Source of the DNA: a virus
Lineage: Duplodnaviria; Heunggongvirae; Uroviricota; Caudoviricetes
Virus record (IMG/VR): IMGVR_UViG_3300028532_000009
Reading direction: 5' to 3' (one strand)
Length of the DNA stretch: 13,497 bases
Shown: piece after piece, positions 1,509-13,497 of the stretch
Position numbering within the stretch: position 1 is the stretch's first letter
How the letters are laid out: each line of letters starts with the position of its first letter
Translations under genes and position numbers: made by a program
The notes under the pieces: generated by a model
Told to the model about the DNA's origin: nothing
Databases searched by the model: none
Seen by the model: only the letters and a program-made list of their open reading frames with translations

Positions 1509-2654
1509 ATGGCACAGGGCTTGCCTGTATCAAACGTTGTTAATGTTGATGTGATCATGTCGCCGCGTGCAGCATCAGGGCGAAATTTTGGTGCATTACT
1601 CATTCTCGGCCCGTCCACAATCATTCCGGTAAGTGAGCGCATTCGTCGTTATTCTGCCGCGGAAGATATTGGAAAAGATTTTGGCGTGGAATCACCAGAA
1701 TATAAAGCTGCGCAGGTGTTTTTCTCACAATCACCGAAACCTCAGGAGGTTTTTGTCGGTCGTTGGGTGAAAACGAAGGGAGACAGCGAACAGGCCACGC
1801 CTGAGACGCTGGAGCAGGCTGTGAATGCCATGCTTGATTATACTTCATGGTATGGACTGGGGATTGCAGACGATGCAGATATTCCGGATGCAGACTGGCT
1901 GAAAGTGGCTGCGGCGATCGAATCCTCTTCTGTAAGCCGTATTCTGGCGATTACGACAAGCGATGAGAAATGCCTGCAGACTGCATCCAGCGATGATTTG
2001 GCATCAAAACTGAAAACCGCCGGATATTCACGCAGTTTTATTCAGTATTCATCGGGTAATAAATACGCTGCGTTATCTGCATTTGGCCGGGCATTCACGG
2101 TTAATTTCAATGGCAGTAATACCGCGATTACGCTCAAGTTTAAGCAGGAGCCGGGTGTCGGGTATGAAACACTGACAGTCAGCCAGGCATCGGCACTTGA
2201 TGCAAAAAACTGCAATGTGTTCGTGTACTACCAGAATGATACAGCTATCCTCCAGCAGGGAGTGATGGCTAACGGCGATTTCTTTGATGAACGCCACGGC
2301 CTGGACTGGTTACAGAATTATGTGCAGACCAGCCTCTATAACCTGCTTTATACCAGCACCACGAAAGTTCCCCAGACTGAAGCCGGTATTACCCGACTGT
2401 TATCAAATGTTGAAAAATCACTGGATCAGGCCGTTCAGAATGGACTGATTGCTCCGGGCGTATGGAACGGGGGCGACCTTGGTCAGTTGTCATCAGGTGA
2501 CACACTGCCCAAAGGTTATTACGTATACGCCCAGCCGCTGGATGAACAGGCACAATCAGAACGTGAAGCCCGTAAGGCTCCGGTGATTCAGGCTGCAATA
2601 AAACTTGCAGGCGCGGTTCATTACGCTGACGTACAGATTAACGTTGTTCGCTAA
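1509..2654 (+). CDS. Tail sheath-like protein (381 aa)
   Basis: ATG 1509 with GGAG (1497-1500) 8 nt upstream. Size and position immediately 5' of the tube-like gene, chaperone and tape measure. From memory it resembles the DUF3383-type sheath proteins that pair with a small tube protein; not verified by search. Confidence 0.65.
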
Positions 2655-2664
2655 GGGGAAGTGA

Positions 2665-3105
2665 ATGTCTACCTATTCTTTTATGGATGTCACTGCGACG
2701 CTGACCGGGCCGACCGGTTCGATTGACCTCGGGTACGGTTCGGCAAGTTCTGAAGAGGGGATTGTGGTTGCGATGGGCGGTCCTAAAAACACCATGACCA
2801 TCGGTGCTGATGGCGAAGTGATGCACAGTCTCCATGCAGATAAAAGCGGGACGATTACCGTTAACCTTCTGAAGACATCACCGACAAATAAAAAATTGTC
2901 GCTGGCGTATAACGCACAGAGCCAGTCTTCTGCCACATGGGGGAATAACGTTATCGTGATCCGCAACAAGGTCAGCGGCGACATCATCACGGCACGCAGT
3001 GTTGCGTTTCAGAAACAACCGGATAACGCCAACGCTAAAACCGGTAATACGATGCCGTGGGTGTTTGACTGCGGCAAGATTGACCAGGTTCTCGGGGAGT
3101 TTTAA
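2665..3105 (+). CDS. Tail tube-like protein (146 aa)
   Basis: ATG 2665 preceded by AGGGGAAG (2654-2661). Small protein between the sheath-like gene and the chaperone; resembles DUF3277-type tube proteins from memory. Confidence 0.65.
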   Translation: MSTYSFMDVTATLTGPTGSIDLGYGSASSEEGIVVAMGGPKNTMTIGADGEVMHSLHADKSGTITVNLLKTSPTNKKLSLAYNAQSQSSATWGNNVIVIRNKVSGDIITARSVAFQKQPDNANAKTGNTMPWVFDCGKIDQVLGEF

Positions 3106-6703: not shown

Positions 6704-7735
6704 ATGTCGAAAAACTGGATGCGTCACTTTGAATTATTGCTTGTTGATGATAAGGGCGACGGGATAAAAATTTCTGAGCTTAAAGTCACTTTCAATATTC
6801 AGAAAATGCCTGCGACCATATTTAATGGATTCGTTGGAAATTTTAAGGTTTATAACCTGTCTCCTACCACTCAGAACCGGATTATGCAGAAGGAGTTTTC
6901 GCGTATACAGGTTATTGCCGGATACAAGGGGCAACCGGATGCAGCAGGTAATTATCCTGATGAAAACGTTGGTATGATATTCAATGGAGATATCCGTTTT
7001 ACTGTCACTGGTAAAGATAATGCCACAGACAGTTGGATCATGTTGCAGTGTATTGACAGCTGGGAAGGCCACCTGAACGCAAGTGTGAAAACCACAGTGG
7101 CATCTGGCTGGAAGTACAGAGATCTTTTCAGTCTGGGTATGAAATCATTCGAACCATATGGCATCGAATCCGGCGCAGTTCCTGACATGCCTGAAACGGT
7201 ATTTCCCCGGGGTCGCGTTGTTTATCAAAACACATCAAGGTTGATGAATCATATCGCAGGGCAGTGTAAGGCTAACTGGTGGTATGAAAATAATCTGGTA
7301 AATATTGTTCCTGAAGATAAATATATTGGTGTTGCTACGGTGTTGAATGCTAACACCGGGCTTATCGGTATGCCACAGCAGACGATGGGAGCTGGCGTAA
7401 ATGTCAGATGCCTGATTAATCCAAATATTAAGCTCGGTGGGCTTATTCGTCTGGATCAGGCATCTGTATACCGTGCCTCTTTGAGTAATGACCAGGTAGC
7501 GAAATCGCCAGCACGACTGGATGAGTCTGAAAGCGACGGTAATCTCTACGTTAACGGTCTGCCAGGCATGTCACAGCCTGCCAGCATTAATACTGACGGT
7601 GATTACATTGTGGGCAGCATTGATTATACTGGCGACACCCGAGGGCAGGCGTGGTATATGGACCTGCTTTGCCTGGCTAAAGGTGGCAAAGAATTGCTTA
7701 ACTCGAAAGGGATTGATGCGGCGAAATACACATGA
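6704..7735 (+). CDS. Baseplate hub-like protein (343 aa)
   Basis: ATG 6704 with GGAG (6695-6698) upstream. Size and position between tape measure and spike match a hub of the gpD/Mu-P/XkdQ class. Looks more AT-rich than flanking genes by eye. Assignment is by synteny. Confidence 0.55.
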   Translation: MSKNWMRHFELLLVDDKGDGIKISELKVTFNIQKMPATIFNGFVGNFKVYNLSPTTQNRIMQKEFSRIQVIAGYKGQPDAAGNYPDENVGMIFNGDIRFTVTGKDNATDSWIMLQCIDSWEGHLNASVKTTVASGWKYRDLFSLGMKSFEPYGIESGAVPDMPETVFPRGRVVYQNTSRLMNHIAGQCKANWWYENNLVNIVPEDKYIGVATVLNANTGLIGMPQQTMGAGVNVRCLINPNIKLGGLIRLDQASVYRASLSNDQVAKSPARLDESESDGNLYVNGLPGMSQPASINTDGDYIVGSIDYTGDTRGQAWYMDLLCLAKGGKELLNSKGIDAAKYT

Positions 7736-8067
7736 AAAGACCATTGTTGACAGTTTTACTTGTCTGTATCTCCTTCATTTCCTTTGCTGATACCGGTTGC
7801 GGACCATTTACGATCAACTGGAAAGCGCAAGACGGACTTGCAAGGATTAATGGACAGAAACCGGAGACACAGAAAATCATCTTTCTCAAACAGGAAGGTG
7901 ATTATGACAATGTGAACATCCAATGGATGATTCCGGGTAATGGGCGTTGGTTAGGGATGGATTTTGTGGCCAGAAATGGCAAGCCGATCCTCAACGTTGA
8001 AGTTATCCGCAAAAATATGGACGAGCCTCGGGAGTTCTGGACGTATGATTGCCGGAAGGTGAAGTGA
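7732..8067 (+). CDS. Small secreted protein of unknown function (111 aa) with N-terminal signal peptide; accessory (moron) gene
   Basis: ATG 7732 overlaps the hub stop (ATGA). N-terminus MKRPLLTVLLVCISFISFA followed by DTG is a typical Sec signal peptide with an AxA-like cleavage site. The mature part has two Cys, one near each end. The RBS is weak, so expression probably depends on coupling to the hub gene. Confidence 0.6.
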   Translation: MKRPLLTVLLVCISFISFADTGCGPFTINWKAQDGLARINGQKPETQKIIFLKQEGDYDNVNIQWMIPGNGRWLGMDFVARNGKPILNVEVIRKNMDEPREFWTYDCRKVK

Positions 8068-8142
8068 ATTACATTGGCGTCCAGCTTCTGCAGAACAGCA
8101 TGGATGCGCCGAAAATCATCGGTTCCTTTCCATGCAAAAAGA

Positions 8143-8170
8143 TTGTTGATTAATCACTCGTAATTATAAT
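8143..8170 (+). promoter_or_regulatory. Sigma70-like promoter for the small membrane-protein gene
   Basis: TTGTTG (8143-8148), 16-bp spacer, consensus TATAAT (8165-8170), about 37 nt upstream of ATG 8207. Short inverted repeat ATCAC (8153-8157) / GTGAT (8171-8175) brackets the -10 box and could be an operator. Confidence 0.5.
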
Positions 8171-8206
8171 GTGATACTTCTACTTTCACGATAAGGAATT
8201 TGTCAC

Positions 8207-8446
8207 ATGTTCGGATTTGATAAATTAATAACTCCAAAAATCATCAACGTTCTGTATGGCATCACAATGTTACTTCTGGTTGTTGCCGCCATTATAACGT
8301 TTGTTAATGGGAAGGCTGCTGGCGCTTTAGTGCTTTTGTTATGTGCTGTATTTTGCCGAATATTCTTTGAGTGCATCATGGTTTCATTTAAAAACAATGA
8401 GTATCTTCGCCGAATAGCTGAAGCGTTAGAAGCAAACAAGCAGTAA
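8207..8446 (+). CDS. Small two-helix inner-membrane protein (79 aa), possibly DUF4282-like; accessory (moron) gene
   Basis: ATG 8207 with AAGGA (8193-8197) upstream. Two hydrophobic helices (INVLYGITMLLLVVAAIITFV and ALVLLLCAVFCRIFFECIMVSF) and an amphipathic charged tail. The N-terminal FGFDKLITPKIINVLYGI motif matches my recollection of DUF4282 small membrane proteins (unverified). Has its own promoter and terminator and is AT-rich. Confidence 0.7.
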   Translation: MFGFDKLITPKIINVLYGITMLLLVVAAIITFVNGKAAGALVLLLCAVFCRIFFECIMVSFKNNEYLRRIAEALEANKQ

Positions 8447-8462
8447 TGAAACTTCAATAATG

Positions 8463-8487
8463 AACCCGCCACCCGGCGGGTTTTTTA
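8463..8487 (+). terminator. Rho-independent terminator
   Basis: GC stem CCCGCC (8465-8470) / GGCGGG (8475-8480) with 4-nt loop ACCC, followed by TTTTTT (8481-8486), 17 nt after the stop of the membrane-protein gene. Confidence 0.75.
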
Positions 8488-8505
8488 CTTTCTGGAGACA
8501 TATGA

Positions 8506-9258
8506 ATGCCCGTTTCTTTAAGCGCTCAACTTGGTAGCAAAGAACAGGCCGATGTAAGACTTGCTGGCTCTGTCATGTCGGCGCTGCGTGTTTCTATGCC
8601 CGGCATCGTCCAGTCATTTGATCCGGACACGGTAACAGTGGTTGTTCAACCTGCGATTAAAGGCTATGAGCCGGACTCAAATGGAATCAACCAGTCGACG
8701 ACATTACCCCTGCTGGTGGATGTACCAGTGGTATTCCCGCGCGGCGGAGGCTGTACGTTGACTTTTCCGGTAAAAGCCGGGGATGAGTGTCTTGTCGTTT
8801 TTGCCGATCGTTGTATTGATTTCTGGTGGCAGAGTGGCGGTGTGCAGGAGCCTGTCGACGACCGGGTGCATGATTTATCGGATGCTTTCTGTATCGTCGG
8901 GCCGCAGTCTCAGGCGAGGAAGATTAGCGGTATTAATACCAGTGCTACACAGTTGCGTAGTGACGACGGCAGCACCTATTTTGAGCTTAATCCTGATACC
9001 CGGAAAATTAAAATTGTCGCTCCGGGGGGGCTTGATGTGGTTGCCCCTCTGGCTGATTTTTCTGAGAAAGTAACCATTCATGGCCTGTTAACCTGGATGG
9101 GTGGCATGGTGGGGTCTGTTGTTTCTGGTGTGGCTTCAAAAATCACTGGTGCTGTTGAGTTTTTGGGTAGCGTGAAGGCTAACGGCAAGCCAATCGATGA
9201 TACGCACACTCATGGCGGTGTTCAGCGCGGTGGAAGCAATACCGATGGGGTAAACTGA
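8506..9258 (+). CDS. Baseplate central spike protein, gpV/Mu gp45-like (250 aa)
   Basis: ATG 8506 with TGGAGA (8493-8498) upstream. First gene after the terminator, so transcription resumes or reads through here. The N-terminal part and Gly-rich C-terminus (HTHGGVQRGGSNTDGVN) resemble spike proteins from memory. Position before wedge and J-like genes. Confidence 0.65.
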   Translation: MPVSLSAQLGSKEQADVRLAGSVMSALRVSMPGIVQSFDPDTVTVVVQPAIKGYEPDSNGINQSTTLPLLVDVPVVFPRGGGCTLTFPVKAGDECLVVFADRCIDFWWQSGGVQEPVDDRVHDLSDAFCIVGPQSQARKISGINTSATQLRSDDGSTYFELNPDTRKIKIVAPGGLDVVAPLADFSEKVTIHGLLTWMGGMVGSVVSGVASKITGAVEFLGSVKANGKPIDDTHTHGGVQRGGSNTDGVN

Positions 9259-13129: not shown

Positions 13130-13497
13130 AACCGTAGCACGTCGTATGCAAGAACGTGCCACGGCTGGCTGATGGACGTTCGATAGCGCGAGTTTGAATG
13201 AAAATCAGCCGGAGGTGATTTTACATAATTGTTGCGGAATCATTCAATATAGGGATTGCTTATTTCTGCCTGGATTGGTCTGAAATAGTCCCGAAATTTT
13301 CTCTAAAAAACTCGAAAAAAATGGTAACTAATTGAATGCATTAATATGCAATGGTACGTGTTTGGGATTAAAAGATGAGCGTAATTTTGCTTAACAAATT
13401 AATTTAAAAAGGGTTTCTTGTTTGTTGACGAAAACAGGAATCGTGTTCGGTCTCTTTTTATCTGTTAAAAGCCAGAAGCATTTCCTTCGCTGACTTT

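Follow-up and report, generated by a model that had tools for sequence, protein, structure and literature searches.

A putative moron encoding a predicted DUF4282 membrane hairpin in a hub-spike cargo slot of an Escherichia coli prophage

Introduction

Among the described systems that most resemble the locus analyzed here, gp15 of phage HK97 blocks the genome entry of superinfecting phages (PMC3594210), and phage T4 pairs a membrane protein, Imm, with a periplasmic protein, Sp (PMC11436027). In the present study, we analyzed a stretch of 13,497 nucleotides (nt) of tailed-phage DNA (IMG/VR record IMGVR_UViG_3300028532_000009), hereafter called the window, in which a short cassette (positions 8143 to 8486) encodes a 79-amino-acid (aa) protein of the DUF4282 family between the hub and spike genes of a baseplate operon. 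As in the case of HK97 gene 15, a small membrane-protein gene has been inserted into a tail operon beside a DNA-delivery gene. Judged from its sequence features and those of its relatives, the cassette is very probably a moron, i.e., an optional, horizontally acquired unit, encoding a membrane protein whose activity is a matter of prediction.

Results

Base composition, occurrence, and cargo of the hub-spike slot

The first-pass annotation of the window had proposed a self-contained, moron-type cassette made up of an open reading frame (ORF), a ribosome-binding site (RBS), promoter hexamers, a terminator, and a short inverted repeat, and all of these elements are present in the sequence at the positions it had assigned to them. 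The coding sequence of 79 aa (MFGFDKLITPK...EALEANKQ) lies on the plus strand, as do the other features described below unless stated otherwise, at 8207 to 8446, and is identified by its ORF, by Pfam, by phrog_12129, and by RefSeq (WP_000466689.1, named DUF4282 domain-containing protein). Its RBS, AAGGA (8193–8197), is located 9 nt upstream of the ATG and is kept in the alignment of relatives. The gene was correctly described as set apart from its neighbors: in the RefSeq annotation, the tail module has no wider gaps than those on the two sides of the gene (139 and 59 nt), a second gap of 59 nt being found before a tail-fibre assembly pseudogene, and the remaining genes of the module overlap or lie 0 to 23 nt apart.

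At 37.5%, the G+C content of the DUF4282 gene is the lowest of the 17 genes, compared to 49.8% for the window and 45 to 52% for the two flanking genes; among segments of 240 nt, only 1.8% are as poor in G+C. The cassette is also patchily distributed, being present in 83 of the 320 E. coli genomes that match the region, while in about 237 the match is confined to the 3′ end of the upstream gene. In related prophages, at least seven other unrelated cargos occupy the hub-spike slot: a 170-aa ORF in phage vB_EcoM-689R2, 256- and 131-aa genes in E2348/69, 184- and 56-aa genes in O55:H7 CB9615, a DUF2335 protein in strain M-17, a 190-aa protein together with a YafO toxin in strain ET776, two small secreted proteins in strain MFDS1022581, and, in Yersinia phage YP3, a 266-aa ORF flanked by perfect direct repeats of 124 nt. 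Of eight slot cargos, five have promoter candidates of their own (p < 0.03). Low G+C content, patchy presence, replacement in the slot, varied genomic contexts, and a constant terminator all bear out the proposal of a moron-type cassette, and these findings support its assignment as accessory cargo rather than as a core baseplate gene. Of the features by which morons have been defined (PMC3594210), the locus displays extra DNA, deviant base composition, and a terminator, alongside a candidate promoter.

Several further observations were made on the slot. The promoter candidate of the E2348/69 cargo reads TTGACT-18-TAAAAT. The YP3 repeats (L003, 4761–4884 and 5685–5808) include the RBS and start codon of the spike gene and resemble an insertion footprint. 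At another locus (L004, ~2317–2558), an unannotated ORF overlapping the hub stop codon encodes a small Thr/Gly/Cys-rich protein with a signal peptide, and a second small secreted protein follows. We found no description of a hub-spike hotspot, no literature search having been aimed at it.

Candidate promoter and upstream-gene remnant

Promoter-like sites were scored with our own script, using a position-weight matrix built from the Hawley-McClure frequencies. The candidate sigma-70 promoter of the cassette (8143–8170) consists of a −35 hexamer TTGTTG (8143–8148), a 16-nt spacer, and a −10 hexamer TATAAT (8165–8170), which place the predicted transcription start near 8177. With 10.8 bits, it ranked first on the plus strand and second of 26,942 positions on both strands, and the chance of so good a site within the 138 nt upstream of the gene is approximately 0.01. 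The top-ranked site of the window, TTGAAT-18-TAAAAT (~13190–13247, minus strand, score 12.0), lies among tail-fibre-assembly pseudogenes. Both hexamers of the cassette are invariant in four distinct homologous sequences, which differ in the middle of the spacer and in most of the 5′ untranslated region; the invariant blocks are TTGTTGATTAAT and AATTATAATGTG, and 82 of 136 alignment columns are invariant overall. Since the hexamers are kept while their surroundings diverge, the comparison gives modest but real support for a functional promoter at this candidate site. In a Pantoea subgroup, the elements TTGAAA/G-17-TAAGAT (TAGGAT in one sequence) are likewise retained while the spacer diverges. 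A census of 78 IMG/VR loci (p ≤ 0.05) identified a promoter candidate at 30 of 31 window-type loci, six of eight Pantoea loci, six of seven Klebsiella loci, and one of three GF-2-type loci.

Several findings count against an independent promoter. The −35 hexamer matches TTGACA at only three of six positions, which is why a consensus scan omitted the site, and its description at first pass as near-consensus was an overstatement, even if the site is the best on its strand and its hexamers are kept. Conservation could be assessed in four distinct sequences only, and in two of these, part of the −35 hexamer is also constrained as coding sequence. Finally, two lineages mostly lack a candidate: besides the GF-2-type loci, a third myovirus lineage, the largest phage lineage outside E. 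coli, has one at only four of 29 loci, and its gene sits tight to the tape-measure gene.

The −35 hexamer is contained in a stretch that appears intergenic (8067–8153) and directly follows the stop codon of the resident 111-aa upstream gene. This stretch comprises 28 codons and a TAA, and its translation, VNYIGVQLLQNSMDAPKIIGSFPCKKIVD, is 79% identical to residues 87 to 114 of an intact member of the upstream-gene family, a protein to which the resident 111-aa gene product is only 39% identical. On this comparison, the remnant is the presumptive left recombination joint, which arrived with the cassette from a foreign allele of the upstream gene. The approximately 237 E. coli genomes without the cassette match this stretch alone, which there encodes the C-terminal end of their own gene. 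The upstream allele is intact in two metagenomic loci whose DUF4282 protein is 84 to 87% identical (L088 and L089), as it is in many E. coli prophages whose gap measures 53 nt. It ends in ...AAG GTT GTT GAT TAA, so that its last codons form the −35 TTGTTG, and TATAAT follows the stop. At two other loci (L086 and L087), an in-frame stop interrupts the decayed remnant, which lies behind an unrelated 154-aa gene, and the hexamers are still intact. The anatomy of the remnant shows that, when the cassette moves, the end of its former left neighbor moves with it.

The short inverted repeat ATCAC/GTGAT around the −10 hexamer had been put forward as a possible operator, a proposal that found no support: an equally good bracket surrounds 9% of the hexamer positions in the window, which is the level of chance, and the repeat is lost in relatives. 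No inverted repeat of 12 nt or longer was found in the region, and a search of positions 7600 to 8700 against Rfam gave no known RNA element, the only match being a subthreshold one to the Phe leader (21 versus 55 bits, E = 0.98).

Terminator

The intrinsic terminator of the cassette (8462–8486) begins 16 nt past the DUF4282 stop codon and consists of a stem (8463–8470 paired with 8475–8482), an ACCC loop, and a T run (8481–8486), as identified by scanning, folding, and conservation. Its stem-loop (8462–8483; nine pairs, six of them G-C) heads the list of terminator-like sites in the window and has the longest stem among them. The strength ascribed to it at first pass was borne out by folding, with a free energy of −16.7 kcal/mol, a z-score of −3.5, and none of 200 shuffled sequences as good. 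Across seven loci, which reflect a single lineage, 96.4% of the cells in the stem alignment are paired, and two pairs show compensatory changes. A canonical terminator is present 3′ of the DUF4282 gene at all 78 IMG/VR loci.

The E. coli slot variants all end in the terminator family ACCCGCC-NNNN-GGCGGGTTTTTT, which stands behind seven other cargos and is followed by an RBS of the (C/T/A)(T/G)GGAG type (CTGGAG in five of seven) and the spike ATG. Because it is common to every E. coli slot cargo, the terminator is the right-hand boundary of the slot and is not private to DUF4282. The claim of a self-contained cassette thus holds in part: the gene forms a discrete unit with an RBS, a candidate promoter whose −10 hexamer is strong and whose −35 hexamer is weak but conserved, and a strong terminator, but it is not fully self-contained, its −35 hexamer lying in the remnant of a foreign upstream allele and its terminator being shared across the slot.

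The DUF4282 protein

Membership of the 79-aa protein in DUF4282, suspected at first pass, was confirmed by a profile search (PF14110), in which residues 2 to 71 aligned with positions 2 to 85 of the 86-position profile at 42.2 bits, compared to a gathering cutoff of 27. The protein also matched phrog_12129 (E = 8e-48), a group without known function. Kyte-Doolittle analysis and an AlphaFold2 model agree on the proposed two hydrophobic helices with a charged tail. Two hydrophobic segments (approximately residues 12–33 and 39–61) are followed by the charged C-terminal tail; hydropathy in 19-residue windows exceeds 1.6 over residues 7 to 62, with peaks at residues 15 to 33 (2.67) and 41 to 59 (2.55) that flank an NGKAAG turn. 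In the model (mean pLDDT, the predicted local distance difference test score, of 85), the helices span residues 10 to 33 and 37 to 78, the second extending into the charged tail. Lysine and arginine residues number two at the N terminus, one in the loop, and four in the C-terminal tail. Since the positive-inside rule applied to this distribution places both ends in the cytoplasm, the product is probably an inner-membrane helical hairpin with an N-in, C-in topology. An antisense ORF (8203–8472, 89 aa) was interpreted as the mirror ORF that commonly accompanies a hydrophobic gene.

Alignment of the homologues identified as invariant the residues F4, L7 to P10, R51, E55, and F61 to I70 (FKNNEYLRRI), while the hydrophobic cores and the short loop are variable. 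The conserved surfaces are thus the N-terminal FDKLITPKI motif, the Arg/Glu pair in helix 2, and the C-terminal FKNNEYLRRIAE helix. Of these, FxxLITP before helix 1 and Rxx(F)E in helix 2, followed by F(K/R)xNExL, are hallmarks of DUF4282 that are present even in distant tandem-repeat members, and the near-invariant FKNNEYLRRIAE helix marks a phage-borne Enterobacterales subfamily, which has a single hairpin and no fused domain. A profile search of 1.84 billion representative sequences retrieved 578 DUF4282 relatives (E ≤ 0.001), mostly single hairpins of 78 to 140 aa. Five of the proteins (P0115, P0123, P0138, P0168, and P0227; 341–632 aa) contain four to six tandem DUF4282 hairpins, some with C-terminal double zinc ribbons. 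The existence of proteins with four to six units suggests that single hairpins may work as oligomers of about that size.

Membership in DUF4282 is uninformative on mechanism, because the whole family lacks an assigned function. In Pfam (E ≤ 0.01), the protein matched DUF4282 and, below threshold, YbhQ, and no superinfection-exclusion or holin family; PADLOC gave no family for it at E ≤ 0.1, and neither PADLOC nor NCBIfam gave one for the protein or its neighbor. A Foldseek search of the AlphaFold2 model against the PDB and BFVD gave no match at E ≤ 0.001, a two-helix hairpin being too simple to be informative, and a sequence search of solved structures gave chance-level matches alone (E ≥ 0.08). 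In the searchable literature, we found no paper mentioning DUF4282 or PF14110, WP_000466689, or phrog_12129, and for STY1065/STY2022 only papers from an unrelated field.

Distribution of homologues

Close homologues of the DUF4282 protein (45–75% identity) are spread over the Enterobacterales. Homologues are located in at least five phage contexts and also stand alone on chromosomes. In phages and prophages, the gene is found in the same hub-spike slot (Pectobacterium and Erwinia), directly after the tape-measure gene in Klebsiella siphoviruses, in GF-2-type myoviruses (with its start 0 or −1 nt away from the stop of the tape-measure gene), and in a third myovirus lineage, and just downstream of a holin-lysozyme-spanin lysis cassette in Pantoea prophages. 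On chromosomes, it lies in the order dnaE-accA-homologue-yaeR-tilS in cryptic Escherichia, E. ruysiae, E. whittamii, and Pseudocitrobacter; in Enterobacter, Leclercia, and Lelliottia, two GntR-aminotransferase regulator genes flank it, and in Serratia it has several different neighborhoods. Homologues with 73 to 75% identity are present in non-phage contexts in an Erwinia chromosome and in a metagenomic sequence. The accA-side homologue (L049–L055, L063, and L067) is 84 aa long and lies between accA and a glyoxalase-family gene upstream of tilS, a position taken by ldcC in E. coli K-12.

For the third myovirus lineage, a survey anchored on the Dit-like neighbor recovered 36 loci when an alignment was used as the query, compared to five with a single protein. 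The tape-measure/Dit-like junction of this lineage (L182–L217, ~2600–3000 in each; also L022 and L026–L028) is likewise a cargo slot: of the 36 loci, the DUF4282 gene was intact in 30, reduced to a C-terminal remnant in one, and replaced by other genes in five. The replacements include two unrelated small single-helix membrane proteins, and the same conserved box and terminator always come next. At the loci inspected, the terminator has in front of it, irrespective of the cargo, a box that resembles CAGCGGTAACACGATGTAACCC apart from a few substitutions. Its absence or replacement among relatives indicates that the DUF4282 gene is dispensable cargo in every lineage examined. As for tail-operon homologues devoid of both promoter and terminator, which the first-pass annotation would have taken as contrary evidence, most members of this lineage do lack a promoter candidate, but the terminator is still there and the gene itself is absent or replaced at six of 36 loci.

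Source prophage and neighboring genes

The window has 100% identity with a prophage that is inserted between yebY and pphA in E. coli strain R1 (NZ_CP031706.1). This prophage has a lambdoid organization with a Rac-like early region and, at the position of the Q antiterminator, a DUF1133 protein; DUF1133 has been listed as a Q antiterminator based on HHpred (PMC8136144). A lambda-type lysis cassette comes next, followed by head genes and a contractile-tail module. The tail module starts with DUF3383- and DUF3277-family proteins at the sheath and tube positions, a chaperone, and a tape measure with a transglycosylase domain, and continues with the Dit-like, plug, and hub proteins, the 111-aa and 79-aa proteins, the spike, a wedge protein, and baseplate J. 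The hub gene (6704–7735) is overlapped at its end by the start of the 111-aa gene. Downstream of the cassette, the RBS of the spike gene, GGAG (8494–8497), and the central spike gene (8506–9258) follow, the latter identified by annotation and by its N-terminal spike domain (PF18352, E = 3.4e-44) and Apex motif in Pfam. The early region of the R1 prophage (L093, 4237–6603) also carries a Hok/Gef toxin gene and a gene pair encoding a nucleotide-binding-domain protein and a SLATT-domain protein, which are likely further accessory or defense cargo.

The 111-aa upstream neighbor (7732–8067), which lies outside the cassette, belongs to the STY1065/phrog_3443 family (PHROG 3443, E = 3.5e-42), with homologues at loci L002, L003, L007, L088, L089, and L094 to L097. 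All ten family members examined share two conserved cysteines and a signal peptide of the Sec type, as expected of a periplasmic protein, even though the gene lies within a baseplate operon; to assign it a role as a Spackle-like inhibitor of the tail transglycosylase would be purely speculative. A two-component system formed by this secreted protein and the DUF4282 protein, as had been suggested, does not fit their inconsistent co-occurrence: approximately 237 E. coli genomes have the STY1065-type 3′ end but no DUF4282 gene, and after tape-measure genes, after lysis genes, and in chromosomes, DUF4282 is present where an STY1065-family gene is not.

Discussion

Tentatively, we regard superinfection exclusion, by analogy with HK97, as the most likely function of the cassette. 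In the lysogen, host sigma-70 polymerase would start near 8177, produce a monocistronic RNA of approximately 310 nt, and stop at 8462 to 8486, and this stop would keep the spike and baseplate genes silent. During lytic growth, terminator-resistant, Q-modified late transcription would read through the terminator. The product, a 79-aa inner-membrane hairpin with both ends inside, would block the passage across the inner membrane of DNA delivered by tails of the tape-measure/spike type, as gp15 does. A block of entry is our best single guess because DUF4282 adjoins tape-measure or spike genes in four lineages, because other small membrane proteins can replace it, and because the slot also carries other defense-like cargo.

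Three considerations weigh against this function. The conserved residues are predicted to face the cytoplasm, and the loop exposed to the periplasm is both short and variable, contrary to what would be expected of a protein meeting an incoming tail tip. The wide conservation of chromosomal homologues suggests a cellular role unrelated to phages. The 79-aa protein, moreover, has no match in PADLOC, no similarity to gp15, and no Pfam superinfection-exclusion family.

Of the alternatives, a lysogenic-conversion or host-physiology gene is the most serious, if less probable than an entry block: the protein would be a small inner-membrane modulator (e.g., of a transporter, a protease, or envelope stress) borrowed from the chromosome, which benefits the lysogen and has no anti-phage role. 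Such a role would fit the stand-alone chromosomal homologues (38–75% identity) in non-phage neighborhoods of many Enterobacterales, the approximately 578 representative clusters of mostly single small proteins alongside those with four to six tandem hairpins, the cytoplasmic location predicted for the conserved residues, and the lack of a match to any defense-system model. It leaves unexplained, however, why the gene has repeatedly and independently been placed by tape-measure or spike genes in four tailed-phage lineages and why unrelated small membrane proteins substitute for it at the same position, and the chromosomal copies, which occupy several contexts per genus, may themselves be mobile islets. 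We consider it improbable that the protein is an abortive-infection or toxin-like effector, whose hairpins would oligomerize into a pore or depolarizing assembly, triggered by infection, that kills the cell before phage release. The two hydrophobic helices with a conserved Arg/Glu pair within helix 2, the oligomers suggested by the tandem proteins, and the YafO toxin-antitoxin pair that occupies the slot in another strain are compatible with such an effector, but no partner, antitoxin, or antisense element was detected for this single gene, its candidate promoter would be constitutive, its stable chromosomal conservation across Serratia and Enterobacter is hard to square with toxicity, and PADLOC gave no match.

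Slightly less probable again is a helper or structural protein of the tail, i.e., a late-operon product that acts with the tape measure or spike in assembly or membrane penetration. The order of sheath, tube, chaperone, tape measure, DUF4282, and Dit-like genes is fixed in ~29 contigs of the third myovirus lineage, with gaps of 8 to 59 nt and usually no promoter, and the GF-2-type gene abuts or overlaps its tape-measure gene, as expected of a late-operon product. An integral membrane hairpin, on the other hand, cannot easily join a tail assembled in the cytoplasm; the gene is missing or replaced in six of 36 close relatives within that lineage and in about three quarters of the window-type E. 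coli prophages, the terminator is always 3′ of it, and chromosomal homologues lie far from any phage. A holin-like, antiholin, or lysis-timing protein would have the size and the class II topology seen here (two transmembrane helices, N-in and C-in, and a charged tail), and the Pantoea copies are located just downstream of lysis genes, but we hold this role to be very unlikely. No Pfam holin family was matched, the prophage already has a lambda-family holin (its holin, endolysin, and lysis genes lie 18 kb upstream), most copies reside in tail modules or chromosomes, and expression from the candidate constitutive promoter would presumably make a holin lethal.

Superinfection exclusion remains our preferred function, and a broader proposal can be built on it, which we consider doubtful as a whole: DUF4282 hairpins may be widespread, unrecognized blockers of phage DNA entry, forming inner-membrane rings of five or six that act from the cytoplasmic face on the tape-measure or spike channel. 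The junctions between the tape measure and the next gene and between hub and spike would then be dedicated exclusion slots in temperate Enterobacterales phages, with conserved terminators insulating the late genes in the lysogen, and the chromosomal copies would have been domesticated. A block of DNA entry, if true, would provide a function for a domain found in hundreds of protein clusters and a second, unrelated membrane-protein moron beside DNA-delivery genes, after the single well-studied case of HK97 gp15. If the protein is instead a host-physiology factor, the finding is that of an ordinary moron. Whatever the function, the hub-spike slot offers a clean natural case of cargo exchange inside a baseplate operon, with at least eight alternative cargos and a conserved terminator as its boundary, and a place to look for new prophage-encoded host-benefit or defense genes.

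The resemblance to HK97 extends to the details of gene arrangement. Both gp15 and the DUF4282 cassette are optional relative to related phages; gene 15 has been described with its own promoter and terminator (PMC3594210), and the cassette has a candidate promoter and a terminator. The terminator of HK97 gene 15 begins 6 nt past the stop codon and ends 12 nt before the tape-measure ATG, compared to 16 nt past the stop and a T run ending 20 nt before the spike ATG in the DUF4282 cassette. The proteins themselves differ, gp15 having 62 aa and one hydrophobic segment and the DUF4282 protein 79 aa and two helices, and BLASTP gave no alignment between them at E ≤ 100. Exclusion was shown experimentally for gp15, whereas the DUF4282 protein is likened to it by the features of its gene. 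T4 Imm, with Sp, and P22 SieA are likewise phage-encoded inner-membrane proteins that block DNA entry, and the pairing of Imm with Sp superficially resembles that of DUF4282 with its STY1065-family neighbor. In contrast to these systems, DUF4282 matches no exclusion family in Pfam and co-occurs inconsistently with the secreted neighbor; T4, moreover, is a virulent phage, and its imm gene is not a moron in a late operon. With respect to the slot, the closest likeness is to prophage cargo or defense hotspots such as those of P2 and P4 (cited in PMC11364771). In both cases, a fixed position between conserved phage genes accommodates a range of unrelated accessory genes as alternatives; in the hub-spike slot, several of these have candidate promoters of their own. 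The hub-spike slot differs from these hotspots in lying inside the baseplate operon and in having one conserved terminator as its right-hand bound.

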